Below, one piece after another: positions 8,393 through 22,207 of a DNA stretch of 64,000 nucleotides. A program made the translations under genes and the position numbers. Position 1 is the stretch's first letter, and each line of letters starts with the position of its first letter. Below the pieces are notes generated by a model. That model worked only from the letters and a program-made list of their open reading frames with translations, was not told the origin of the DNA and did not search any database. The stretch is taken from assembly GCA_947641575.1 (NCBI GenBank), contig CANRQN010000002.1, forward strand, positions 8,494-72,493, read 5' to 3'. Source of the DNA: an uncultured Clostridium sp. (GTDB lineage Bacteria; Bacillota; Clostridia; TANB77; CAG-508).

Positions 8393-9830
8393 CTACTTTT
8401 TTGTAGGTACTTTGATTACTACTTCTGTACCTTCTCCTTTTTTACTTTTTATGTCTATACTTCCGTCATTTTTGTCTAGAATTTCTTTGGCAATCGAAAG
8501 ACCAAGTCCTGTTCCTCCCATTTCTCTTGTTCTTGCCTTATCTACTCTGTAAAACCTTTCAAAAATACGTGTTAAGTCTTCTTCTGGTATTCCAATACCA
8601 TTGTCTATTATTTTTATATATGCATCATTATATACAAATCCCACATATATTTTGATATTTCCATTTTCTCCTGTATATTTTATACTATTTGTTAATATAT
8701 TTAATACAACTCTTTCTATTCCGTCTTTATCTGCATAAACTGCTGGGACATTTGCTGTAACAAAACACTCGACTGTTTGGCTTTTTTTCTCTATTTCTAT
8801 TTGTACTTTGTCTTGACACCTTTTTACAAGTTCTCCTAAGTCAAATTCTACTTTTTCTTGTCTTGTTTCATCATTATCATATCTCGAAAGTGATAATAGA
8901 TCTGTTACAAGTTTTGCCATTCTCCTTGCTTCTGTAGATATTACTGTTAGGAATTTATCCTGTGTTTCTTTATCATATTCGTCTTCTAGTAGTGTATCTG
9001 CATATCCCATTATTGAAGTTATCGGTGTTTTCAATTCATGTGATACATCTGCGACAAATTCTTTTCTCATGTTGTTTAGTTTTACATGTTCAGTAATATC
9101 TTGTATTACAACGATTACTCCTGTTGGTATATCGTCTTCGTTTTTTAGTGGTGCAAAGTGCATATGCACATAGGTATCCCCTATTGTCACTTTCTCTTCT
9201 GAGGATGTCCAATTTTCAAGATATATTATTTTTTCTAAATTTATATCTACATTTAGTTTGCCAAATATTTTTTCAAAGTTTTCATCTTCTGGAATTAACC
9301 TAAGTAGCCTTGTTGCAGCTGGATTTATTAATTCTATTCTTCCTTGCATGTTAAATGCTATAATTCCATCTGTCATATGTAAAAGTATTGTCTCTATCTG
9401 ATTTTTCTTTTTTGATACTTCACTTAGGTTTTCCTTTAGTTCTTTTGTCATTACATAAAATGCATTTACTAAATCATCAACTTCATTCTGCTCAGTTGGT
9501 CTTGCAAGTTCTTTAGTTTCAACTTCTTCTCCTAGTGCTATTTTTCTTGCATTATTTATTAATCTTGTTATTGGAGAAATTATTCTTTGTGTTACAAATA
9601 CACCGTACTAATACACAAATTGTGCTAAATGTTAGTACTGTAAATAGGGTTATTATTTTTACTTGCCCTTGGTATCTTTGTATTATTTCTCCAATTTCTT
9701 GTACATTATCTGACTCAGCTTGTACTACTGCTTGTAAATTCGCATAGTTAATGTATCCCATTGCTGCAATTGCAATGATTCCAATTATTAAAAAGATTAG
9801 AACTATTTTTATTTTTATATTTCTTAACAT
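8393..9830 (-). CDS. Sensor histidine kinase (TM-HAMP-PAS-HisKA-HATPase; WalK/PhoR-like); one CGG(+1) site at 9602-9605
   Basis: H-box VADVSHELKTP and G-box GGTGLGLSIAK. Junction ..ICVLV-[C]GGT-VFVTQRIISPITRLI. 1438 minus 1 is 479 codons. Confidence 0.85.
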
Positions 9831-9928: not shown

Positions 9929-10676
9929 TTACTCAGGTTTTGCAATATAATATCCAACACCTCTTTTTGTAACAAGTATCTGTGGGTTTGTTGTATCTTC
10001 TTCTATTTTTTCTCTTATTCTTCTTACTGTAACATCTACTGTTCTTATATCTCCAAAGTATTCATATCCCCAAACTTTCTCTAGTAAAAGTTCTCTTGAT
10101 ACAATTTGTCCGAGGTTGCATTGCTAAGTATTTTAGTGCTTCAAATTCTCTAACTGTTAAGTCTACTTTTTCTCCTCTAACTTTTACCTCAAATCTATCT
10201 ATATCTAAGCTTAAATCGCCTACTTCTATTTTATGCTCTTCTTTCTTTTCTTTTGTTTCTGAAACTATCACTGGAACTTCTGATTTTCTTAAGTTTGCTT
10301 TTACTCTTGCCATAAGTTCTCTTACACTAAATGGTTTTGTTATGTAGTCATCTGCTCCAAGTTCTAACCCTACAATTTTGTCTAATTCCTCATCTTTTGC
10401 TGATAATATTAGGATTGGAACATTTGGAATAGCACTTTTTATTTTTTTGCATGCTGTTAGTCCATCCATTTTTGGAAGCATTATATCGAGTAAAATTAAG
10501 TCGGGCTTCTTTTCTAACGCCATTTCTACTGCTGTTACTCCATCATTTGCTTCTATTGTATTATATCCTTCTTTTTTTAAGTTGTATACTAATATGTCTA
10601 TTATCGATTGTTCATCATCTACTACTAATATTGTTTTCTTGTCTTCATCATCAAACATAACTTGTCCGCCTTTCAT
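9929..10676 (-). CDS. OmpR-family response regulator; one CGG(+1) site at 10109-10112
   Basis: Receiver domain (ILVVDDEQSI..DLILLDIMLPKMDG). Junction LAMQP-[C][29 protein letters not shown] restores the winged helix. 748 minus 1 is 249 codons. Confidence 0.85.
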
Positions 10677-10751: not shown

Positions 10752-11587
10752 TTGTTATTTCTATGTTATTTAGATTATAACCGAATTTGCTACTAATTTT
10801 ATAATGTCCGTTCTACATTTACATTCTACTTTATTTAGATTATAGCATATAGAGTTAACCATCTTGTATATAATTCTTTTTCATATTTACATTCTACTTT
10901 ATTTAGATTATAACTAGAGAATATGAATCACATTCCATATGTGAGTTAGGATTTACATTCTACTTTATTTAGATTATAACTTTGCTAATCCATTTATGAG
11001 TGCAATGGAATTTATATTTACATTCTACTTTATTTAGATTATAACGTTACAGAATTACCGCATAAAACTTAAAGTGAAAGAATTTACATTCTACTTTATT
11101 TAGATTATAACGTAATGCTTGATATAACTGCATTATAATAATAACGAATTATTTACATTCTACTTTATTTAGATTATAACACTATAGTAATGTAATTAAT
11201 TTAGTAGCACAGCTAATATTTACATTCTACTTTATTTAGATTATAACTGAGTGCTATAGAGATATGCAATTGACACAATTAGAAGAATTTACATTCTACT
11301 TTATTTAGATTATAACATGTGAGTTAGGAGGAGAAAATGTTTGAATTTTTTGAATTTACATTCTACTTTATTTAGATTATAACTGAAATGCAATATTTTT
11401 GATTTTATCTATGATATAATCATTTACATTCTACTTTATTTAGATTATAACTGAGTGCTATAGAGATATGCAATTGACACAATTAGAAGAATTTACATTC
11501 TACTTTATTTAGATTATAACTAAAACAAACTTTGAATAACTAAAGCCTTCATATCAAATTTACATTCTACTTTATTTAGATTATAAC
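10752..11587 (-). CRISPR. CRISPR array: 13 repeats (30 bp) and 12 spacers (35-39 bp), type I-B repeat
   Basis: Minus-strand repeat GTTATAATCTAAATAAAGTAGAATGTAAAT. Repeat starts (plus coordinates): 10752 (degenerate), 10817, 10885, 10951, 11016, 11082, 11151, 11218, 11287, 11354, 11422, 11491, 11558. The degenerate repeat is distal to cas2 and the leader is proximal. Confidence 0.97.
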
Positions 11588-11767
11588 AGGCTAATTCTAA
11601 AGCTTCATATATAGCCATTTTCACTTACTATTTCTGTCGTTCTATATTTATTTTATCATATAAATTCAATTTTTCAAACTATTTTTTATAAAATACCTAT
11701 TTATAGCACCTTTTGCAATCTGTCGGTTCCCCACAGTTTTTACACTATTAGACATCGACAGATAGAT
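11588..11767 (-). promoter_or_regulatory. CRISPR leader (AT-rich region between cas2 and the first repeat)
   Basis: Position between the cas2 stop and the best-conserved repeat. Polarity of repeat degeneration supports it. Confidence 0.6.
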
Positions 11768-12052
11768 TTATAGAAAGTTAGAAGTTTTATCATCTTCAAT
11801 CATCCCCAAAAATTCCTTATCTAGCCATCTTTGATTTCTGCTCTTAAATAGTATCACACTATCCTTATCTTCTCTTATATATTTATCAAGTTCCTTTTTT
11901 AATTTTATTGCTTGCGATTCCAAAAGTTCCCCCTCAAAAACTGAATTTTGAATATGTACTAAATACTTTTTACATGTTTTATATACATTTCTTAAAACTT
12001 TCTGTCCTTCTCTTTCCTCCAAATTTATATCATACACTAAAATCACATACAT
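11768..12052 (-). CDS. cas2: CRISPR-associated endoribonuclease Cas2
   Basis: MYVILVYDI... start (ATG 12050-12052), just after the cas1 stop. The track ORF extends to 12079. Confidence 0.9.
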   Translation of the reverse strand: MYVILVYDINLEEREGQKVLRNVYKTCKKYLVHIQNSVFEGELLESQAIKLKKELDKYIREDKDSVILFKSRNQRWLDKEFLGMIEDDKTSNFL

Positions 12053-12053
12053 A

Positions 12054-13046
12054 TTACCACCACATCTTAAACCCTTCATATGATATATCTTCCATAAGAT
12101 GTTTTATTAGTTTATAAACTTCTAACCTCATTAAATATTCATAACTTACTTCTCTTCCTAATTTCTTATGCATTATTTTAGTTTGAAGTTTTGCATCAAT
12201 CTCTTTTGTTATTTCCTTCCTTGCATCCTCTTTTATATATAAAAAGTTCAAATTTTTTTCAAAATCCTTTTCTGTTAATTGTTTTTTATTAAGCATTGAA
12301 AATATTAATCTATCACCTATTATTGGTTTAAATATTTCTGCAATATCTAGGCAAAGTGAAAATCTTCTTTCTGAAGGTTCATGTAAATAACTAATTGTTG
12401 GATTCAACTGCGTCTTATATATTTCGCTTAGTACTCTAGTATATATTATTGTATTAACATATGATATAAGTGAATTTATAGCATTATCAGGTGGATTTTT
12501 GACTCTTTTTTCAAATTCTAAGTCTTGGTTTATTATGTTTGGCCATGCATCATAGTATAGTTTTCTTATATTCCCTTCTATTCCCATAAGTTCTTGAACA
12601 TCTTTGCATAATTCTATTTGAGTTCTAAAAAACTCTATTTCTTTCATATGTTCATTTACATCTTTTCCCCTATTATTATAATATGTTAAATTTCTATATA
12701 TATTGTAAGATGCCGCTTCTATAAATGCTTTTGCAATTTCTAATCTTTTTTCTTTATTAGTATAATTTTCTACCTGCTTAATTAATAATTTCCCAGAGAC
12801 TAAACTTTCTTTTGGATAATATGTGCCAGTGTAAAATCCATAATAATTAAAGAAATGCACACTAATTCCAAATTGTGATAAATAATTTATCAGTTTAGTA
12901 TTAAAGTCGAATTCAGTCATTACATATATATCATCAATTCTTTCAATTGGAATACTTTTCTTTGTTCCATCACTATATACTATTTCAATAGTGTTATCTT
13001 TTCTCTGTAACCTTCCACTTTTATATAAATAATATGATTGCTTCAT
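12054..13046 (-). CDS. cas1: CRISPR-associated endonuclease Cas1
   Basis: 330 aa, positioned between cas4 and cas2, Cas1-like sequence. Confidence 0.9.
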   Translation of the reverse strand: MKQSYYLYKSGRLQRKDNTIEIVYSDGTKKSIPIERIDDIYVMTEFDFNTKLINYLSQFGISVHFFNYYGFYTGTYYPKESLVSGKLLIKQVENYTNKEKRLEIAKAFIEAASYNIYRNLTYYNNRGKDVNEHMKEIEFFRTQIELCKDVQELMGIEGNIRKLYYDAWPNIINQDLEFEKRVKNPPDNAINSLISYVNTIIYTRVLSEIYKTQLNPTISYLHEPSERRFSLCLDIAEIFKPIIGDRLIFSMLNKKQLTEKDFEKNLNFLYIKEDARKEITKEIDAKLQTKIMHKKLGREVSYEYLMRLEVYKLIKHLMEDISYEGFKMWW

Positions 13047-13057
13047 TTATTCCTCCC

Positions 13058-13576
13058 TTACACATAGCACAAATCAAAATATGAACATTTCTTACATTTC
13101 TTATCTTCTTCCTTAATTGGCGGATTGTCCATTTTTATTATTTCCTTTATCTTTTCTATAGTATCTTTTAATATTTTTCTATCTTCATCATCTAGAACTA
13201 TCTCTTTTCTTTGCTTTAACAATGGATAATCAATTTCAGCATTAATATCTTTTACTCCTTTATTTTCTAAATAGTACATATAATATTTAAGTTGCCAAAT
13301 TCCTGCTTCTTCAATAGCTTTTGTCTTCTTTACCTCATGGAGTGTCGCTCCATCATTTACAAAATCTATATTTATAGTTCCATCTATTAGCATATTTTTC
13401 TTTTCTCTTACATAGCTTGTTTCATCTATAATTTTCCCAATGCTTACAAGTTCACTATTTTGCTCCATTTCAAGCTCATTTGCAAAATACCAAAGTTTTT
13501 TCTTGCATATAAAGTAATAGTAAATCATTACCCCTGTTATATCTTTCATGATATTCCTCCTAACAAAACTTTTCAT
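13058..13576 (-). CDS. cas4: CRISPR-associated exonuclease Cas4
   Basis: C-terminal CKKCSYFDLC cluster and N-terminal Cys. Probable true start is MKDITG at 13549. Confidence 0.85.
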   Translation of the reverse strand: MKSFVRRNIMKDITGVMIYYYFICKKKLWYFANELEMEQNSELVSIGKIIDETSYVREKKNMLIDGTINIDFVNDGATLHEVKKTKAIEEAGIWQLKYYMYYLENKGVKDINAEIDYPLLKQRKEIVLDDEDRKILKDTIEKIKEIIKMDNPPIKEEDKKCKKCSYFDLCYV

Positions 13577-15770
13577 TTAGTTCATATTCTTCATCTTTTT
13601 CTAGCAATAGCCCTATTTCTTTATCATACTTTAAATCTATTATATATATCTTTTCTTCTTTCATATATGGGTTTTCTGTTACATATCCCTTTACTTTTTG
13701 ATACTGTGAATTAGTAATTGATGTAGTTAATTTATTAATCTTTCTTTTTAGACTAGATTTATTCTTATATTCGCTTTCCTTTTCATATTCTTGAAATAAA
13801 TCCAAATTCTCATCATATATCTTCTTTGGAACAACTATAATATTATCTATATTTCTAAGTAATTTTTGTGCTTCTTTTTTATTTGTATCATAATCTACCA
13901 CATTGTTTAAAATATTCATTCCATTTTCGAACTTTTTTAAAAAGTCTGTTCCTGCCAATTTTTCCTTTGAGTATAACTCATCTACTAATTGTATTTTCTC
14001 CCTTTCTACTATTAATTTTTTATTATATGGTGTTAAAAGTTCTATACTCTTTTTATAAATATCTTCATCATATATGTATTTAATTCCTGTAACTTCTTTA
14101 GTATATATATAAATATTAGGTTCTTTTTCATCATATTCCCTATTTCTATAACATCTTCCAAATCTTTGAAATATACTATCTAGCGTTGACATTTCTGTAC
14201 ATAAAAAGTCAAAATCTATATCCAAAGATGCCTCTACAATTTGTGTTGTTATCCATATCCCATGCTTATTTATGCTCTTTGAAAAGTCTTTAATTTCTTC
14301 TTCTTTTTCATTTCTATCTTGTAATATAAATCTAGAATGTAATAAATTTATATTTTCGCAATTTTTTAAAGACTCATACATCTCTATAGCCTTATTGATC
14401 GTATTACATATAACTAATACTTTGCTATTTTTCCCTTTTTCTTTTATTTCTTCTATATCTTCTAGCATGCTTTTTTCTTCTAATAGAATCCTATGTCTTT
14501 TTACGTCTTTGATAAATTCTCCATATCTAATTTTTACTCCCATTTTTTCTAGTTCATCTTTATATATTCTAGGAAGTGTTGCTGTCATAACCATAAACTG
14601 TCCATTCATTTCATAAATCATTTGCAATCCTTTTAATATAATTGCTACAATTTCTGGTGAATAACCTTGTATTTCATCTATTATAATTTTGGAATACCCT
14701 AAAGTTGCATATATTTTTTCATATCCTCTGTATTTAAAAACAAATGGAAAAATTTGATCAATAGTGCATGCAGTGATTTTTTCAGCTAAATTCCTTGATG
14801 CTTCATAATTATTTACTTTTACGTCAAATTCTTGTTTTTCCTCCAGATAATCTAAAGCTGTTGAATGCAGTAGTCCTACATGTTCATACTTTATTTCATC
14901 ACGAATTCTATCAAAAATTGCATTAATACTTATTCTAATTGGTAATGTAAAGAAAGTCTTACTATTTTTACTCCAAAGCAATGCCGCTTCTGTTTTTCCT
15001 ATCCCTGTAGAGCCTACTACTAGTAAATTTTCTCCTTGATTTTGTTTGCTAAATTTTTGTATTTCTCTTAAATCATATCCTTTTTCTTTTATGCTATTTT
15101 CTACTAAGTTTGAAATTACTTCTTTGGTTTCATTTTCTACAACTATTCCAGCAGAGCTACTATGGTCTAATCTATGTAGCAATCCTTTTAACAAGAGATA
15201 TTCTTCATATAAACTATCTCTTTTAGAAATCCTATCTCTTTTTCCACTACCAATTTCTATTAAGTAAAATGATGATGGATTTTTCTCTATTTCTATTCCA
15301 GTTTCATTCTCTATTTCAGTTAATCTTGGAAGAATATCCTCTTTAATAATTTTATCTACTAAAGTATTATTTACTACTTGTTTCTCTCTTTCATGATGAT
15401 AGAAAATCACTTGATAAACTAGTTTTTCTTCATCTATTGTCAGATTAAATTTTTGTATTGGAATAAAAAGCGGAGATAATTCTTCATGTTTTACTGCTTC
15501 GTAATCAAATTTGGTTGGTAAAAGCTCTATTCCTAATTTTTTTCTTATTTCATTTTGAAATGGTGTATATGCCTTTCCTAAATCATGATAAGTACATATT
15601 ATTTCTAATAAATTCCAGAATCTCTCTTTATCTATATTTCTTCCTTTTAATATTTCTTCACCATATGTATTTTTTAGTATCTTTAGATTATTTAATAATT
15701 GATCTGTATGTTCCTTTATCGATTGCTCTGGATTAGATTTCGCATAATACATTTTAATTTTTCCTTTCAA
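13560..15770 (-). CDS. cas3: Cas3 (HD nuclease plus DEAD/DEAH helicase)
   Basis: HD region (YHDLGKAYTPFQ), Walker A GSTGIGKTEAAL, DEIQ box. 736 aa. Confidence 0.9.
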   Translation of the reverse strand: MKGKIKMYYAKSNPEQSIKEHTDQLLNNLKILKNTYGEEILKGRNIDKERFWNLLEIICTYHDLGKAYTPFQNEIRKKLGIELLPTKFDYEAVKHEELSPLFIPIQKFNLTIDEEKLVYQVIFYHHEREKQVVNNTLVDKIIKEDILPRLTEIENETGIEIEKNPSSFYLIEIGSGKRDRISKRDSLYEEYLLLKGLLHRLDHSSSAGIVVENETKEVISNLVENSIKEKGYDLREIQKFSKQNQGENLLVVGSTGIGKTEAALLWSKNSKTFFTLPIRISINAIFDRIRDEIKYEHVGLLHSTALDYLEEKQEFDVKVNNYEASRNLAEKITACTIDQIFPFVFKYRGYEKIYATLGYSKIIIDEIQGYSPEIVAIILKGLQMIYEMNGQFMVMTATLPRIYKDELEKMGVKIRYGEFIKDVKRHRILLEEKSMLEDIEEIKEKGKNSKVLVICNTINKAIEMYESLKNCENINLLHSRFILQDRNEKEEEIKDFSKSINKHGIWITTQIVEASLDIDFDFLCTEMSTLDSIFQRFGRCYRNREYDEKEPNIYIYTKEVTGIKYIYDEDIYKKSIELLTPYNKKLIVEREKIQLVDELYSKEKLAGTDFLKKFENGMNILNNVVDYDTNKKEAQKLLRNIDNIIVVPKKIYDENLDLFQEYEKESEYKNKSSLKRKINKLTTSITNSQYQKVKGYVTENPYMKEEKIYIIDLKYDKEIGLLLEKDEEYELNEKFC

Positions 15771-15830
15771 TATACAATTCTAATAGCGACGCAAGATGTT
15801 AATTCTTTTTTCAACTTTTTTAGCCACACT

Positions 15831-16493
15831 TTATAGTAAGTGTGGCTCTTTATCATAGAAAAACACATAGTTTCCGTCTTCATCTATTAATGCTTCTCTT
15901 AGTCCTTTATTTGTATGTCTTTCTATATATTTTACATTAACTTTGTCCCATTTTCTAAGATTATTTACAACTTTATATGTAGTATTTAGTCTATAGTTAA
16001 TTCCTCTAATTTTATCATCTATATATTCAGGTACATATGCATTATATTCATTAATCATTCCTCTTGATATTTGCATTTCTCCTATTATTTTCACTTCATC
16101 TACTCTTACCATGTCCTCATTTCTTCCAAGTGTAAATGTTTCTTTTCCCATAGTAATATTTTTATATAATTTTTCTATTATATCGTCTTCTGCTTGAATG
16201 TGAATAATTAACTCTACATTTAATAACTGATGTACATTTCTTGGCATAGATGTAACTTGGTCTTTTCCTTTAAACATTCTTAAATTCTGATAATTTGAAA
16301 ATATACTTTCATATTTACCTTGCACAGAAATATTCATCGAAAAATATTCTCCTGACTTTGCTTCTAATATTTTGTGTAGCATTCCTATTACTGTAGAATA
16401 TGGTGGTAATGGATAAGTTTCTGCAACTTTAAAAGCAAATGGCTTTTTATAGCATGCTGTTTCTTGAAATAGTTTTAATCTTAAATATTTCAC
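15831..16493 (-). CDS. cas5: Cas5 (type I-B)
   Basis: 220 aa, positioned between cas7 and cas3. N-terminal MKYLRLKLFQETACYKKPF is typical of Cas5. Confidence 0.8.
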   Translation of the reverse strand: MKYLRLKLFQETACYKKPFAFKVAETYPLPPYSTVIGMLHKILEAKSGEYFSMNISVQGKYESIFSNYQNLRMFKGKDQVTSMPRNVHQLLNVELIIHIQAEDDIIEKLYKNITMGKETFTLGRNEDMVRVDEVKIIGEMQISRGMINEYNAYVPEYIDDKIRGINYRLNTTYKVVNNLRKWDKVNVKYIERHTNKGLREALIDEDGNYVFFYDKEPHLL

Positions 16494-16507
16494 CCTATCA
16501 CCTCTTT

Positions 16508-17410
16508 CTATTTTTTGTAATACTCCTCTACTTGCTTCTCTAAGTTTTCAAAGAAATCTTGCACATTAGAAACTTTTCCCTCAAATATTTCTTCTATTTC
16601 TTTTTCATTTTTAAATGTGTCTTTTATAATTCCTACTTTTGTATCATCATAAATAGAATTTCCCCCTATTTTTAAGTTTATTGTATCTTTCAACATATTT
16701 GTATTTAGTGAAAATTCCTTATTTCTCCCTTCTAACTCGATTCTTCCTAAGAAAAATGGTGAATTTAAGTCGTAAATTCCTCCTATTACAAATAATGGAC
16801 TTAAGTTTTCTTCTCTTCCTCTTATATCTCTATTTAATACTTTTATTATTTCTAATAATTCCTTTACTCTCTTAGCTCTTATCTCTTTATCTATTTCTAC
16901 ATTATCATCTACACCTACTTTTGCCAAATCTATTGTTATTGTATATGTGTAGAAGCTTAAATGTTGTTCAATATTTGCTAGATTTGGAAATTCATTTATT
17001 CTATCTGCTAATCCTTTGTTATTTAAAAAGTCCATATCGCTTTTATAATCTTCTAGAGAAATTGCATTGCTTAATCTAACTGCTGCACTTCTAATGCTAG
17101 AATTTCCCTCTTCCTTTTTTGCTGTTTTCATATATCCGAATAAATCCATTTCTTCTGAATCTTCTATTGTTAATTCATCTTTAAATTGAACTGTTCCTTT
17201 TGATTTATCTACTACTTCTAAGTTCCATCCAAATAGTTTATTTCCAATTCTTGCTATATCATATCTTAGTGCTTGTCTTGATGCAAATGTATATACACTC
17301 CCATCTCCTCTTGTTAGTTTTTTTAGTTCTGAAATATTTCCAATTCCTTCTCCATAATTTAAGCTTTGTGCTTTAAAAATCATTGTTATACTTAATCCAT
17401 TTTTATTCAT
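16508..17410 (-). CDS. cas7: Cas7 (type I-B backbone subunit, Cst2/DevR family)
   Basis: 300 aa, operon position, LNYGEGIGNISELKK motif. Confidence 0.8.
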   Translation of the reverse strand: MNKNGLSITMIFKAQSLNYGEGIGNISELKKLTRGDGSVYTFASRQALRYDIARIGNKLFGWNLEVVDKSKGTVQFKDELTIEDSEEMDLFGYMKTAKKEEGNSSIRSAAVRLSNAISLEDYKSDMDFLNNKGLADRINEFPNLANIEQHLSFYTYTITIDLAKVGVDDNVEIDKEIRAKRVKELLEIIKVLNRDIRGREENLSPLFVIGGIYDLNSPFFLGRIELEGRNKEFSLNTNMLKDTINLKIGGNSIYDDTKVGIIKDTFKNEKEIEEIFEGKVSNVQDFFENLEKQVEEYYKK

Positions 17411-19262
17411 CTTTTTTTACCTCCACTTTTTCTTCTCTTTTATTTGATATTAAACCTGCTAAAAAGCTATGTCCTATTGATTCAAAATCTAAATTTGTTT
17501 CTTTCATTATTTCTATAAAGATTGGTGATACATCTTTTTCCATTGACATATGAATTCGTAAAATAGTATCCATAAGTTCCTTTCTGTTGCCTGTTCTAAT
17601 TGAATTTAGCATTTTATATGTATATCCATCTATTCTGTTTTCTTCTCCTCTTGCTTTTAATTTCTCATGTATTTCTACTCCTAAGTTATACAAGACACTT
17701 AGCCTTGCATTATTTTTCTTTATTTCTTCTTCCACATTATCTTCCTCCTTTTTTAGTAAATTTAAGGTTAATCTTATTTTAGTTCCTAGATAAGAATAAA
17801 ATCCAAATGGGCTTTCCTCTTTTAATTCTTCTCTTAATCTATCATTTATTACATATTTTATATCTTTGCTTTTTAAAATACATTCCATAATTTGGAGCTT
17901 ATAGCTATATTCTTTAATTGGGTTTAACATAGAATTTGCATATTGTTTGAAAAATTTTGCTATATGTCTATTTATATTAAAATATTGCATTCTGCTATAT
18001 GCACCATATTCTGTTTCAAATTCTATAACAAAAATGTTTTCAAGCTCCCAGCTACTAATCTCCTTATTTTGCTCCACTATATTTAATATCAAGTCACTAT
18101 ATGGATTGTTTTCTGCTGTTTTATCTTTTTTCATTCTTGCTTTAAAATAATTATTTGTTTCTAATAAAGCTTTAATATTTGTATCATAATTTACAAAGTT
18201 TAGTATTTCTTTTTCTTTATATACTACCTTTCCTTTGTCTTGTTCTTTTACAATTTTTGAAATTGTTGTAATTCCTGCTGGTATACAGAATAAGATTAAT
18301 TTACAGATATCGCAAACTGGAAATTCTGCATTTTGATTCCAAAAGAAATTTTTCATATTATCACTACTAATTGCAAGTGGTGCAAAATTACTTTCTGAAT
18401 AATTGCTAGTAATAGTGTGTTCATTCTCACACATATAGCAAGGTGAAAATACTTTTTCTTGTATATAACTTTGTATTTCTTCTAGTGTTTTATTTTTTTC
18501 TATGTATTTTTTTGTTATATTGTTATATATTCCATTCATTTCTTTTGTTAAAAGCTCAGAATCACTTTTTTCTATATATTCCTTTATTTGTTCTATACTA
18601 TGTTTTCCTTCTACAATCTCTTGCAAGTAGTCTGTCTCTATTATGTTGCTTATATAGTCTTTATACATTACATCTTGTTGCTCTTTATACGATAATCCTG
18701 TTTTTACAACATTTAAAAAACTAGGCTGACCAAAGTAATTTTTACTTAGTATACTTTTAAATAAGTTCATTGTAATTCTTTCGTTTATTTCTTCTTTTTG
18801 TACTTGGGCTATAATAACTTTTTGTATCTCTTCTAATGCTTCTTTTTCTTCTGCTTTGTCAATTTCATTATACTTGTTAGCTATATTGTTATATATTTCT
18901 TCATTTATTTTTTTGATTTTATCTAACTGAGTTTTTATATATGCTTTTATATATTTTTTCTCTGTTTTTATTTTCTCTTTTGTTTCTTTATTTTTTTTCT
19001 CTTCTTCTGTTTTTTCTCCTAAGTATTTCTCTATTCTTTCAAAAGATGTTTTTATTCTATCTTCTGTTTTCTCGGCTATATTATATGTATCAAAGAAATA
19101 TTTAAAATAGTCTTTTTGAAATTCTTTTAATTCTTTTGTATCAAATTCAATGTAATTTTCTTCTATTTTTACAAATTCTCTTTTGTTATGTTCTACTATT
19201 TTTAAAAATCCTATTATTCCTGCATTGTAAAACCATTCTCTTGTATATACTTTTACTTTCAA
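17403..19262 (-). CDS. cas8b: Cas8b large subunit (type I-B)
   Basis: 619 aa, positioned between cas6 and cas7. Cys pairs CYMCEN..CDICK. Confidence 0.75.
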   Translation of the reverse strand: MKVKVYTREWFYNAGIIGFLKIVEHNKREFVKIEENYIEFDTKELKEFQKDYFKYFFDTYNIAEKTEDRIKTSFERIEKYLGEKTEEEKKNKETKEKIKTEKKYIKAYIKTQLDKIKKINEEIYNNIANKYNEIDKAEEKEALEEIQKVIIAQVQKEEINERITMNLFKSILSKNYFGQPSFLNVVKTGLSYKEQQDVMYKDYISNIIETDYLQEIVEGKHSIEQIKEYIEKSDSELLTKEMNGIYNNITKKYIEKNKTLEEIQSYIQEKVFSPCYMCENEHTITSNYSESNFAPLAISSDNMKNFFWNQNAEFPVCDICKLILFCIPAGITTISKIVKEQDKGKVVYKEKEILNFVNYDTNIKALLETNNYFKARMKKDKTAENNPYSDLILNIVEQNKEISSWELENIFVIEFETEYGAYSRMQYFNINRHIAKFFKQYANSMLNPIKEYSYKLQIMECILKSKDIKYVINDRLREELKEESPFGFYSYLGTKIRLTLNLLKKEEDNVEEEIKKNNARLSVLYNLGVEIHEKLKARGEENRIDGYTYKMLNSIRTGNRKELMDTILRIHMSMEKDVSPIFIEIMKETNLDFESIGHSFLAGLISNKREEKVEVKKDE

Positions 19263-19279: not shown

Positions 19280-20002
19280 TTAAATCAAATCAAATAGTCC
19301 GAATCCCATAGCTTTTTTAGTACCAATTCCACTTTTATATAAATAATTTAAGAGCTTACTATCACCTGTTAATTCAAATGTCCCAAGTGAACATTCTATG
19401 CTATATTCATATAGCTTTACTACTGTTTTTCTTGCATTTACTGGCTTTATTTCAAATCCATCTAGTAAACTGCTATCTAGTCCTTCTTCTTTCATTTGTT
19501 CTAATATATTTATTCTTATGTATTTATTAAAATCTTCTTCTTTTTCAAATGAATAATATTTGTCTTTCTTTGTAACTCTGTCATGGTTTCTAACAATAAT
19601 TGGGCTTGACATTTTTACTTTTATACTATTTTTTGTTATTTCTTTTTCTACAATTGGTACCACTTTTATTAATGTCATTGAATTTTGATTTAAACTAAAC
19701 TTTTTGTTTCTTTGTCTCATAAATGCATTGTATAAATGCAACATATATGCATAATCATATCCTGAAAAAACTATATAAAACCCTGTTGTTTCTAGGGTAA
19801 TTTTGTTTAATTCAAACTTAGGATAAGGTAATATAGCACTATATGTATATGTTTTTTTCTTTGTTTTTCCTTCTCCATATAATTCCTGAAATAGATTTTC
19901 ATCATATTCTTGTATGCTATGCTTGAAGTAGCTAATTATTGACTTTCTGTATTGTATATCTAATTCAGGTTTTTCTAGTTCAAAGATAAGTTTCATTCTC
20001 AT
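19280..20002 (-). CDS. cas6: Cas6 endoribonuclease
   Basis: 240 aa, first gene of the operon, C-terminal glycine-rich loop GIGTKKAMGFGLF. GGAGG RBS. Confidence 0.85.
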   Translation of the reverse strand: MRMKLIFELEKPELDIQYRKSIISYFKHSIQEYDENLFQELYGEGKTKKKTYTYSAILPYPKFELNKITLETTGFYIVFSGYDYAYMLHLYNAFMRQRNKKFSLNQNSMTLIKVVPIVEKEITKNSIKVKMSSPIIVRNHDRVTKKDKYYSFEKEEDFNKYIRINILEQMKEEGLDSSLLDGFEIKPVNARKTVVKLYEYSIECSLGTFELTGDSKLLNYLYKSGIGTKKAMGFGLFDLI

Positions 20003-20031
20003 CCTTTTTCACCTCCATTCTTTTTTTATGT

Positions 20032-20134
20032 TATGACATTCTATAATATTTAGATTGTTGATTTTTTAGTGTTCTATCATAATTTCAGTCATTTAAATTC
20101 TACTTTAACTAATATTATCTTAATTTCAGTCTGG
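20032..20134 (-). ncRNA. Degenerate two-repeat mini-array (psi-repeat, 29-30 nt psi-spacer, psi-repeat) plus an adjacent PAM-flanked seed match; CreA/CreR-like candidate
   Basis: 20032-20061 matches the CRISPR repeat at 20/30 and 20091-20120 at 19/30 (first 17 nt nearly perfect). The 11-nt taatttcagtc occurs at 20080-20090 and 20121-20131, and the latter is followed by tgg (CCA on the minus strand). Confidence 0.45.
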
Positions 20135-20171
20135 AATTATTTATGTCTTAACTGAATAATATATTATTTTC

Positions 20172-20233
20172 TGACAAAATAATATAAAAAGTGTAAAAAA
20201 GCAAAAAAAGAAGAATACTAGTGTATATTCTCC
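20172..20233. repeat. Left imperfect direct repeat flanking the AbiL-like cassette (decayed copy of the GT4 terminator region)
   Basis: tgacaaaataatataaaaagtgtaaaaaagcaaaaaaagaagaatactagtgtatattctcc aligns with 22533-22595 at roughly three quarters identity by eye. Confidence 0.55.
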
Positions 20234-20258
20234 TTAAAATAATCTTTTATTAAGTTTT

Positions 20259-20861
20259 CTATTTCTTCTTTTCTACTTCATCTAATATCTCAGAAAAGAA
20301 CTTATGTATATTCATAGATGGATTATCGCAATACCATAAAGTTTTATTTTCAACTTTCTTATTAGTATATTTTTTATCAACATCAAGCTTCTTTTTCATT
20401 ATATCTTCTGCATTTTTTATAGCTCGTCTTACATCTTTTAATGTTATTTGTTTTAGCATACTTTTTATTACATTTTCATTTTTTATATCTGCTGTTTCTT
20501 CTAATTTATACGTCTTTCTTATTTCATCTACATAACCGTCGTTATTATTAGCACATTTATCATATGGCTTTTTATGTAATAATATCCATAAGTCAAAATT
20601 TAAATTGGTATAATATGTTATTATTCCCCTTGTTTTTATTCTTCGTTCAAATTGCTTTGGTTCTTTGTCATAGTCAAACACAGCAATTTTAGTCATTGCA
20701 GTTGACAACTTAGATAGTGTTTGAAACTTTGCTTTCTCGTTAAATTTAACACTAGCATTAGGAAAGTTTTGCTTTATCAGATTCCCAAAATGTTTAAAAT
20801 ACATTTCTTCTTGCTGTCCATCATAATAGCATACGTATTCACGCCTAAACTTAGAAGACAT
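20259..20861 (-). CDS. RloB-like (AbiLii-like, Toprim-related) protein
   Basis: 200 aa. N-terminal YYDGQQEEMYFKHF and NLNFDLWILLHK resemble the RloB CEG..TE..YF and FE.W.LLH motifs. Its start overlaps the ATPase stop. Confidence 0.6.
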   Translation of the reverse strand: MSSKFRREYVCYYDGQQEEMYFKHFGNLIKQNFPNASVKFNEKAKFQTLSKLSTAMTKIAVFDYDKEPKQFERRIKTRGIITYYTNLNFDLWILLHKKPYDKCANNNDGYVDEIRKTYKLEETADIKNENVIKSMLKQITLKDVRRAIKNAEDIMKKKLDVDKKYTNKKVENKTLWYCDNPSMNIHKFFSEILDEVEKKK

Positions 20862-22207
20862 TACCCATCCTCCTTCATATCAAGTATACTTTCAAAATCT
20901 ATATATGGTAATGCTCCAAATTCTCCCTCAAAATATTTTTTCATATAGTTATTTTCTGTCTCGACATCAAATTCAGATAATTTATATACATTACTAATAT
21001 ATGTTTCTTCATCTTTTTCAACAAATAAAATTTGGTCTCTTCTAAAAAACCTTCTTTGTAAATATAATGGATTATGTGTATTAAATATAAGTTGTGCATG
21101 TGCTTTATTTATTTTTTTATTATTAAATAGATCTATTATCCCTCCTATAAGTTCTGGATGTATAGAACAGTCAAACTCATCAATTACAAATATTCCGCCT
21201 TTTTCAAAAAGTTCCATAAATCCAACCCAAAAGTCAACAAGTTTTGTAGTTCCTCTTGATTCAATCAATTCTGATTCTAGCATTATTCCTTTCTTTGCTC
21301 CTTTTGGTTCATACATTGATGCTAACACAAATTTTCCTTCAGGATTCTTTGTATACCCTATATTTTGGGGTCCAAAATCTGCTAATTTCAATAATCTATC
21401 TAATGATTCATTTGTCCATATTGAGTTATCAGGAGCACCATCAAAACTCATATATGGTTCTCTTAAATCAAAATCAACAATTGTAATAAGCTTATGTTGA
21501 AACCAATCTAATATATCATTTGCAACCTTTTGACTAATGATTCCTTTAAATAAAGTTGTTAAAAATAATGTCTCTTCATCTAAATTTTCATTAATGCTTT
21601 TTTGTAAGTTGTTTAATTCAGATAAGTACTGTTCTTCTTTTTCATATATCTTTAATACTTTTTTATTATTGTTTAATATAATTTCGTTTTCATTTCTTTT
21701 AAATATATTTATCTTGTTTTCTTTAATTGATGTACCTATATCTTGATATTCTATTACATTTAATTCTTCGCAAACTATACTTCTTTCTTTTCCAATAAGC
21801 GGATTCATTATTTTTATTTTTATTATATAATTATATATATTTAAATTAGTTTTAAATGTTATATTAAATTCTATTGGTTCTTTCATTTTTTTAACATCAT
21901 GAATAAAAGATGAAATTTCTAATTTATCTATTGTGGCATTATTAATTTGTTTTTTTATAGTTCCATTTGTTACGATTTCTTTAATACTGTCTAATGCAGC
22001 AATTATTGACGTTTTTCCATTTGCATTAGCTCCATATATGACCATTGATGGTAATACATTTCTTTTGTTTAATTCTTTATTTGGTTCTTTTTTTCTTATA
22101 TTTATAAGTCTATCAGGATATTCTCTCTTCATATTATCTGCTATCATATTAATCTCTGTAGTATTATAAAATGACTTAAAATTTTTCATTTTGAAATTTA
22201 ATAACAT
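20861..22207 (-). CDS. AAA (AAA_15/21-type, ABC/SMC-like) ATPase, AbiLi-like
   Basis: 448 aa. MLLNFKMKNFKSF start, Walker A GANANGKTS, Walker B IFVIDEFD, NTHNP motif. Confidence 0.7.
   Translation of the reverse strand: MLLNFKMKNFKSFYNTTEINMIADNMKREYPDRLINIRKKEPNKELNKRNVLPSMVIYGANANGKTSIIAALDSIKEIVTNGTIKKQINNATIDKLEISSFIHDVKKMKEPIEFNITFKTNLNIYNYIIKIKIMNPLIGKERSIVCEELNVIEYQDIGTSIKENKINIFKRNENEIILNNNKKVLKIYEKEEQYLSELNNLQKSINENLDEETLFLTTLFKGIISQKVANDILDWFQHKLITIVDFDLREPYMSFDGAPDNSIWTNESLDRLLKLADFGPQNIGYTKNPEGKFVLASMYEPKGAKKGIMLESELIESRGTTKLVDFWVGFMELFEKGGIFVIDEFDCSIHPELIGGIIDLFNNKKINKAHAQLIFNTHNPLYLQRRFFRRDQILFVEKDEETYISNVYKLSEFDVETENNYMKKYFEGEFGALPYIDFESILDMKEDG

Follow-up and report, generated by a model that had tools for sequence, protein, structure and literature searches.

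The 64-kb window analyzed here (64,000 nt of contig CANRQN010000002.1 from an uncultured Clostridium sp., with a guanine plus cytosine (GC) content of 27.7%) contains a complete type I-B CRISPR-Cas locus on its minus strand. The element under study is a degenerate mini-array in the 5′ leader of cas6, the first gene of this locus, in which two repeat-like units (psiR1 and psiR2) flank a pseudo-spacer (psiS) that partially matches a site close by. All eight cas genes were supported by both Pfam and PADLOC. The first, cas6b (19280-20002; PF01881 in Pfam, Cas6b in PADLOC), heads the operon that is presumed to be regulated and is followed on the same strand by cas8b (17403-19262), cas7 (16508-17410), cas5 (15831-16493), cas3 (13560-15770), cas4 (13058-13576), cas1 (12054-13046) and cas2 (11768-12079), with every reading frame from cas8b to cas2 (11768-19262) intact. 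The adjacent main CRISPR array (10752-11587, minus strand) has its leader on the cas2 side and comprises 12 good repeats and one degenerate terminal repeat; it is the source of the canonical CRISPR RNAs (crRNAs) that would compete with a crRNA-like product of the mini-array (psi-crRNA). In the cas direction, the canonical repeat reads GTTATAATCTAAATAAAGTAGAATGTAAAT and folds into a small hairpin (pairs 2-6/24-28 and 8-11/19-22; -3.1 kcal/mol, z = -4.1).

A terminator-like hairpin and U-run (~20203-20235, minus strand; -10.1 kcal/mol, z = -3.6), which closes an upstream AbiL operon, sets the 5′ boundary of the leader and promoter region of cas6, and an equivalent hairpin is visible upstream in the related locus L004 (here and below, L-numbered labels denote related loci or lineages). 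Read 5′ to 3′ on the minus strand, the leader runs AATT CCA GACTGAAATTAAGATA/ATATTAGTTAAAGTAGAATTTAAAT/GACTGAAATTATGATAGAACACTAAAAAA/TCAACAATCTAAATATTATAGAATGTCATA/ACATAAAAAAAGAATGGAGGTGAAAAAGG ATG, and direct reading places the ribosome-binding site of cas6, GGAGGTG, at 20010-20016 (minus strand), where it is conserved in relatives. The two decayed repeats that an initial annotation of this DNA had noted upstream of cas6 were recovered with the same positions and scores, and the intervening psiS measures 29 nt.

The upstream unit, psiR1 (20091-20120, minus strand), matches the canonical repeat at 19 of 30 positions, its repeat-like part being limited to the 3′ 16 nt (AAAGTAGAATTTAAAT, 20091-20106; 15/16 over the repeat 3′ end). 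This part would provide the 3′ half of the stem, the Cas6 cleavage site and the 8-nt 5′ handle. The pseudo-spacer, psiS (GACTGAAATTATGATAGAACACTAAAAAA, 20062-20090, minus strand), lies between psiR1 and psiR2; its 5′ 16 nt form the seed, or pairing part, and its 3′ part is conserved with L001 and L004. The downstream unit, psiR2 (20032-20061, minus strand), matches the repeat at 20 of 30 positions and keeps AATCTAAATA and TAGAATGT. It retains both stem halves (TCTA...TAGA) together with the cleavage site, is predicted to adopt a canonical-like fold (-2.7 kcal/mol) and ends 29 nt before the cas6 ATG, within the cas6 5′ leader (20032 to the A at 20002, 30 nt). The fold of the whole leader RNA is no more stable than that of shuffled sequence (z = -0.23).

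The Hamming score of the two units is not significant by itself, since at least 19/30 is also reached by 51 other 30-mers of the window outside the array. However, psiR1 and psiR2 are the only non-array sites in the window with at least 15/16 to the 3′ end of the repeat or at least 18/21 to its middle, and they form the only same-strand pair of repeat matches 55-75 nt apart. Conservation across seven mini-arrays is distributed accordingly: the last 8 nt of psiR1, corresponding to the 5′ handle, are 84% conserved as against 59% in its 5′ half, and in psiR2 positions 4-15 and 19-26 are conserved and positions 27-30 lost. A single spacer-like sequence enclosed by two degenerate repeats and adjoining a cas operon, with the first repeat keeping the handle-forming 3′ end and the second the hairpin and the 3′-handle part, makes up the anatomy of CreR (Cas-regulating, crRNA-like) elements.

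The site matched by psiS lies immediately 5′ of, and partly within, psiR1. Direct reading of the minus strand reveals the trinucleotide 5′-CCA-3′ (20132-20134, cas-coding strand) as protospacer-adjacent motif (PAM), followed by a protospacer, GACTGAAATTAAGATA (20116-20131), that lies 129 nt upstream of the cas6 ATG and whose final 5 nt reach into the unconserved 5′ end of psiR1. Comparison of psiS (GACTGAAATTATGATA) with the protospacer gave 15 identities over 16 positions, the sole mismatch falling at position 12. Pairing ends at position 16; position 17 (20115) is mismatched and the sequence beyond is unrelated. The CCA-flanked seed match, its mismatch at position 12 and the subsequent collapse of pairing had all been described in the initial annotation, which nevertheless ran the match one base too far by ending it at 20115. 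No second match of this kind exists in the window, whether or not a PAM is required, and none of 2000 shuffled guides scored as well. What is found at this site is seed-proximal, partial complementarity to psiS beside the cognate PAM.

A CCT PAM had previously been deduced from the main array, and this was reproduced: an overlap of 12 nt between spacers 4 and 10 places CCT directly 5′ of spacer 10, from which CCT is inferred as PAM. The two spacers (11317-11353 and 10915-10950) derive from the same strand of one target, a signature that resembles primed adaptation.

Guide and target pairs in related loci

Cas6 homologues were traced to their contigs and the regions upstream of cas6 were compared. 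A mini-array of the same build was found in nine distinct lineages, namely the window locus, L004, L001/L002, L011/L088/L089, L010, L082-L084, L090/L091, L320/L321 and L318/L319, with Cas6 proteins 68-88% identical to that of the window. The pseudo-spacer is 26-31 nt long in eight of these and ~56 nt in L320, where it contains an internal hairpin; genuine spacers of this repeat family measure 34-41 nt. In the seven loci measured, the distance from the last base of psiR2 to the A of the cas6 ATG is 28-31 nt. The mini-array of L320 (~2150-2225; also present in L321) is distinctive in that its psiR1 is a near-perfect repeat, GTTATAATTTAAATAAAGTAGAATGTAAAA, and the 18-nt seed of its psiS is followed by the perfect 11-bp internal hairpin TTGGATTATTA-TTT-TAATAATCCAA.

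A strong cis target for psiS was present in eight of the nine lineages, which between them have six distinct guide seeds (the window locus and L004 share one, as do L010 and L082). The initial annotation had left open that relatives might reveal no more than an eroded array with unrelated flanks; the comparison instead returned PAM-flanked targets in these eight. In a PAM-free search, the strong target was the single best match to psiS in the whole locus in seven of the eight. L090 is the exception: its CCT-flanked site, at 12 paired positions, is equaled by a palindromic match on the other strand, which has no PAM. The 18/18 CCT site of L320 ranks first in the PAM-free scan (15 paired non-sixth positions, compared with 9 for the next site) and also among CCN-flanked sites. 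The PAM is CCA or CCT at all eight strong targets, in agreement with the CCT deduced from the overlapping array spacers, the frequency of the CC dinucleotide in these loci being ~0.02. At each of the seven pairs tested by shuffling, a set that did not include L320, the observed match was reached by none of 2000 shuffled guides.

The pairs differ in sequence and agree in design. The target in L004 is identical to that of the window and is likewise preceded by CCA, with the psiS mismatch at position 6 rather than 12. In L001, a CCA-flanked target, AATGCAAGATTAAATATA, faces a psiS of AATGCGAGATTTAATATA, with mismatches at both 6 and 12. The CCA-flanked target of L011, TAGCGAAGAATATA, differs at position 12 from a psiS containing ...TTTA. 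L010 has a CCA-flanked target on the opposite strand (ATATAAATATATTATTT) that matches over 17/17 positions before a mismatch at position 18; in L082 the target is in the same place, again with CCA, and matches at 18/19, with the mismatch at position 6. The remaining two targets have CCT: that of L090, AATATATATTATGT, is mismatched to psiS AATATGTATTATGT at position 6, and that of L320, ATATAAAATATAAAGATA, matches at 18/18. Targets also differ in placement, being located on the other strand ~130 nt upstream of psiS in L010 and L082, ~90 nt upstream in L090 and ~150 nt upstream in L320.

In type I Cascade, each sixth base of the crRNA is flipped out and unpaired. All seven internal mismatches after which pairing resumes sit at position 6 or 12 (chance probability ~(1/6)^7), which corroborates the earlier proposal that the mismatch at position 12 in the window falls on a non-pairing position, and pairing collapses after 14-19 nt in every strong pair. 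L001 is the closest relative by Cas6 (88% identical) and yet has a seed unrelated to that of the window and its own co-varying target. Between the two loci, the target, psiR1 and seed have been replaced as a block, and the surrounding sequence, to which the 3′ part of psiS and psiR2 belong, has been kept. Further distinct guide-target pairs are those of L011, L010/L082, L090 and L320.

Purifying selection on Cascade-style pairing is evident across these relatives. Conservation of the PAM and seed, drift at sixth positions and absence of the PAM-distal part form the pattern predicted under selection for Cascade binding without Cas3 licensing, and the opposite of that predicted for decay following autoimmune self-targeting. 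Because guide and target co-vary, the CCW PAM is invariant and mismatches are confined to positions 6 and 12, the core inference of a seed-only, Cascade-binding guide is strongly supported.

Predicted regulation and competing explanations

Taken together, these observations indicate that the element is probably a CreR-type mini-array in the 5′ leader of the type I-B cas operon. The transcript of the leader would be cut by Cas6 in psiR1 and in psiR2, yielding a short crRNA-like RNA made up of the 8-nt handle, the 29-nt psiS and the psiR2 hairpin, on which Cas8b, Cas7, Cas5 and Cas6 would assemble. The resulting complex would recognize CCA at 20132-20134 and pair with the template strand over psiS positions 1-16, position 12 being flipped out so that the mismatch there should cost nothing. 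With complementarity ending at 16 nt, the R-loop would be incomplete, Cas3 would be neither recruited nor licensed, and Cascade would stay on the DNA. The site lies immediately 5′ of the mini-array and, by this model, at or just downstream of the promoter for the mini-array and cas6-cas8b-cas7-cas5-cas3. Bound Cascade would block initiation or early elongation, so that the guide and the cas genes alike would be transcribed less; the sign of this negative autoregulation and its size are predictions of the model. Titration of Cascade by canonical crRNAs or anti-CRISPRs should lift the repression, as has been demonstrated by experiment for CreR elsewhere. The intact cas operon and array also count in favor of this explanation.

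The position of the target relative to recognizable promoters in relatives adds further support. The promoter recognized in L011, TAGAAA-N17-TATAAT, stops 8 nt short of protospacer position 1, a spacing which implies that the target covers the transcription start of the RNA containing the mini-array and cas6. The -10 box of L090 stops 23 nt short of the target. L010 and L082 both have a perfect TTGACA-N17-TATAAT, with the PAM placed 9-10 nt upstream of it and on the other strand. Since the target abuts psiR1 in the window, L004 and L001, the mini-array promoter in these three must overlap the target or adjoin it upstream. In the window, the promoter of the mini-array and cas6 must fall within 20135-20202 (minus strand), a stretch that contains the conserved blocks TTTTTTACAC, TAATATATTAT and ACATAAA and has otherwise accumulated indels and substitutions among the window, L004 and L001. 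By analogy with L011, the best candidate for a -10 element on grounds of position is, tentatively, the AATAAT/CATAAAT box lying directly 5′ of the PAM (20136-20145). In L004 (3112-3140) and L001 (1376-1404), a promoter-like TTAAGA/TTAATA-N17-AATAAT also runs from the 3′ part of psiS into the start of psiR2; the equivalent in the window (~20052-20080, minus strand) is weaker (TTATGA...AACAAT). This candidate promoter inside the mini-array was set aside as a likely product of chance in AT-rich DNA; were it active, cas6 would have a second start free of Cascade repression.

Several observations weigh against the proposed autorepression. Consensus and relaxed -35/-10 scans of the window between the terminator (~20203-20235) and the PAM detected no sigma-70-like promoter, so that what exactly is repressed in the window has to be inferred; the TTAAGA-N17-TGAAAT promoter put forward in the initial annotation was not among the calls of the scan, nor is it conserved in L001. 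The psiR1 handle (ATTTAAAT) differs from the canonical handle (ATGTAAAT) by one change and the predicted psiR1 hairpin is weak (-0.1 kcal/mol), both of which leave Cas6 processing on the 5′ side less than assured. A comparison of 62 spacers (from the window, L082/L083 and L005) with 50,697 phage records gave no matches, and two exact-pattern scans of IMG/VR for the main-array spacers found no protospacer. Support for the PAM accordingly comes from the overlapping spacers and the cis targets. Among the relatives, L318 has a degraded target (CCT followed by 13/18, with a mismatch at position 8), and L005, L081 and L092 have replaced the mini-array by an ordinary promoter, which shows the element to be dispensable.

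Four other explanations were considered. It is improbable that the mini-array is a neutral relic without present function, either the eroded end of a former second array or a decayed self-targeting spacer. Relatives do provide some precedent for such a history, in that a full second array lies upstream of cas6 in some of them (L018), single-repeat remnants occur in L085 and L086 and sister lineages are without the element; the repeats of the window are moreover just 19-20/30 identical to the canonical form. Escape from self-targeting, however, normally destroys the PAM or the seed. In the eight lineages it is the PAM and seed that are conserved and the PAM-distal part that is lost, and a relic would not be expected to show co-varying guides and targets with mismatches confined to two positions, to retain precisely those parts of the repeats needed for Cas6 cleavage and for the handles, or to hold a fixed position relative to the cas6 ATG. 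Chance resemblance or local duplication in AT-rich DNA is the least credible of the four and is effectively refuted by the comparative data. The 51 other 30-mers that reach 19/30 or more would be in keeping with chance, and the target and psiS, as direct repeats 41 nt apart, could have arisen by slippage, but the shuffled guides and the invariant CCW flank contradict a chance origin. The sequences that follow the two 16-mers are unrelated, and the targets of other lineages are found on the opposite strand or at 90-150 nt upstream of psiS, which led to rejection of a tandem duplication as the origin of the self-match.

An element acting at the level of RNA, in which psiR2 (with or without psiR1) serves as a Cas6 binding and cleavage site in the cas6 5′ untranslated region and sets the stability or translation of the mRNA, so that Cas6 would regulate itself, with the DNA match incidental or secondary, also appears very improbable as a full account. 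Such a role would suit the narrow spacing of psiR2 from the start codon in the seven loci, the preserved hairpin and cleavage site and the retention of psiR2 alone in L085, yet it leaves unexplained both the PAM-flanked, co-varying and sixth-position-tolerant seed matches and the conservation of the psiR1 5′ handle. An RNA-level role could coexist with CreR-type repression. It is highly unlikely that the locus encodes a CreTA-type addiction module, in which the psi-crRNA would be a CreA antitoxin repressing an adjacent toxic RNA or mini-open reading frame, CreT, and the cell would be addicted to Cascade. The guide has the same design as CreA, the setting is type I-B, and ~70 nt without an assigned feature separate the terminator from the PAM. 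Against this, no Shine-Dalgarno-led start codon was found on either strand of 20003-20262 and no Rfam family matched the same interval, although a non-canonical toxin RNA could escape sequence search. Nor was a plus-strand promoter called, and 20135-20202 varies by indels and substitutions between the window, L004 and L001. The L011 target follows, at 8 nt, a -10 box from which transcription would enter the mini-array and cas6 itself. Loss of the whole element in some lineages is unexpected, if not impossible, for an addiction module. Owing to the lack of a toxin candidate and the poorly conserved flank, the element is regarded as CreR-like rather than CreA-like. The seed-only design with Cascade binding but not cleavage, first suggested as CreA or CreR, is thereby upheld by the comparative evidence in its CreR form and not in its CreA form; at the level of sequence, the hallmarks of CreR other than promoter proximity are all found here and the coupled toxin of CreTA is not.

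Comparison with known mini-arrays and phage mimics

Regulatory mini-arrays upstream of cas6 in clostridial I-B loci have been described before, and the window locus differs from them in detail. Mini-arrays that were identified computationally upstream of cas6 in bacterial I-B loci, including those of Clostridium perfringens and Fusobacterium, target the cas6 promoter region at a typical I-B PAM, and repeat-like sequences occur near cas6 in 27% of I-B loci (Shmakov et al. 2023, bioRxiv 10.1101/2023.03.03.530964; NAR 2023). Mismatches at sixth positions were noted in the same study for regulatory mini-arrays of I-F1 loci. With these I-B mini-arrays, the element of the window has in common its subtype, its location, the two repeat-like units around a shortened spacer and a 5′ seed that partially matches a nearby site next to a typical I-B PAM. 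The layout differs, in that the C. perfringens target is described as lying between the mini-array and cas6, whereas in the window, L001, L004 and L011 the target is immediately 5′ of psiR1 and overlaps it; given this position in the window, the guide would repress its own synthesis as well. The L010 and L082 targets, on the other strand and upstream of the -35 box, depart from the C. perfringens layout in a different manner. The host here is also unlike those previously reported, being an uncultured low-GC Clostridia lineage, and no phage copy turned up in the searches described below.

CreR was defined, and its autorepression shown experimentally, for I-B, I-E and V-A systems (Liu et al. 2023, bioRxiv 10.1101/2023.03.10.532045; Cell Host & Microbe 2023). 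According to that work, CreR autorepression senses crRNA load and anti-CRISPRs, and in CreA and CreR psiR1 conserves the 5′-handle nucleotides and psiR2 the 3′ handle. The window element resembles CreR in being a degenerate mini-CRISPR with the same asymmetry between psiR1 and psiR2 and in having a PAM-flanked partial match (15 nt in the Salmonella I-E CreR, near the cas promoter) and no partner toxin. It differs in lying within the cas6 5′ leader, not as a separate gene between cas genes, and in being known from sequence alone. CreTA of haloarchaeal I-B systems is reported to pair a CreA antitoxin RNA with a CreT toxin RNA (Li et al. 2021, Science). The guide architecture is the same, with Cascade binding without cleavage through seed-limited pairing; unlike CreTA, which is reported to lie between cas6 and cas8, the present element lies upstream of cas6, and no CreT-like toxin was found beside it, be it a Shine-Dalgarno-led mini-open reading frame or a conserved small gene.

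Phage-encoded CreR mimics or mini-arrays silence host cas promoters by the same target logic (Cracr; bioRxiv 10.1101/2024.10.29.618823; Shmakov et al. 2023, Fig. 8), whereas the element of the window sits in the host cas locus. Three scans of IMG/VR with the handle plus seed of the window, or with the seed alone, returned only chance matches among those listed, none of them flanked by repeat-like sequence and none of the listed viral contigs carrying the handle together with the seed, and a BLAST search of the leader against phages and plasmids gave marginal matches only. A marginal similarity was found between psiR1-psiS-psiR2 and p1 of C. botulinum BKT015925, a group III phage-plasmid (L317 1298-1362, corresponding to NC_015417.1 201926-201990; 78% over 65 nt, E = 4e-3). 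The matching stretch of p1BKT015925 is unannotated and intergenic, and its seed (GACGAAAATGATA...) would need indels to pair with the window target; it may be a mobile-element mini-array like that which Shmakov et al. report for phage c-st.

The locus offers a comparatively validated candidate for crRNA-guided cas autorepression in an uncultured, gut-type Clostridia lineage. Its relatives constitute a natural mutagenesis series of six seeds and eight strong pairs, with CCW invariant, mismatches only at 6 and 12 and pairing over 14-19 nt, which from sequence alone defines the PAM, the non-pairing positions and the length window for binding without cleavage of this I-B Cascade. These parameters should help in turning endogenous clostridial I-B systems into tools for gene repression. 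Placement of the target directly 5′ of the guide gene, in the cas6 leader, implies joint repression of guide and Cas proteins, a circuit that departs slightly from the layout published for C. perfringens; current views of CRISPR regulation are unchanged.

Distribution of the mini-array, and neighboring genes

In a neighbor-joining tree of Cas6, all mini-array lineages fall into one clade. Nested within it are L005, L081 and L092, which are without psi repeats and have an ACGACA/ATGACA-N18-TATAAT promoter instead. L085 has psiR2 only and L086 only an end resembling that of psiR1, and no mini-array was found upstream of cas6 in outgroups with Cas6 identity of 62% or less. As read from this distribution, the mini-array is ancestral to the clade of at least 68% Cas6 identity and was retained through much sequence turnover, with at least two losses; these and the single-repeat remnants speak for long retention. 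In L018, which has no mini-array, a full second array of 14 repeats of a slightly different variant lies ~600 nt upstream of cas6 (8507-9394), and an array of this kind is a plausible evolutionary source of mini-arrays at this position.

The pentamer CGACA was strongly enriched upstream of cas6 (L012-L029, L031-L077) and in CRISPR leaders, including that of the window (~11600-11760, minus strand). It usually occurs as TTCGACA, often in two copies ~11 nt apart or within a palindrome such as ACAAATTTCGACAAATTTTGT. Counted over the 200 nt preceding cas6, CGACA was present in 30 of 52 relatives without a mini-array, as compared with one of seven loci with one, and it was found in 30 of 38 CRISPR leaders (in the window as CTGTCGATG, AACCGACAGA and AACGACAGA), the background being 0.069 per 200 nt. 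The TTCGACA box could be a -35 variant common to both settings or the box of a regulator, and may serve in place of CreR-type control. A conceivable, if unlikely, extension is that a single Cas6b family switches its cas control between an autorepressing cassette and a TTCGACA-box promoter, with guide and target re-keyed in an arms race with phage CreR mimics. The former appears to consist of PAM-target, truncated psiR1, psiS and psiR2 inside the cas6 leader, and the latter appears to be conserved and present in CRISPR leaders too. The block swap between the window and L001, and the movement of targets between -60 and +45 of the promoter, would then reflect escape from silencing.

Directly upstream of the cas6 leader lies an abortive-infection pair, AbiLi (448 aa, AAA_21) and AbiLii (200 aa, RloB), at 20259-22207 on the minus strand. 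Its place is taken in L001 and L004 by a UDP-galactopyranose mutase (GLF) gene, the terminator hairpin and leader being common to all three, which indicates that the defense gene pair was inserted beside the CRISPR locus. In the main array, spacers 2 and 5 are exact duplicates, TCTTCTAATTGTGTCAATTGCATATCTCTATAGCACTCA (11248-11286 and 11452-11490). The array of the window is followed immediately by genes for a histidine kinase and a response regulator (8393-9451 and 10062-10676, minus strand). This pair, and with it the synteny, is conserved in L005, in which it comes after the cas genes; L005 is missing cas4, cas1 and cas2 and has just a three-repeat array after cas3 (16519-16681).

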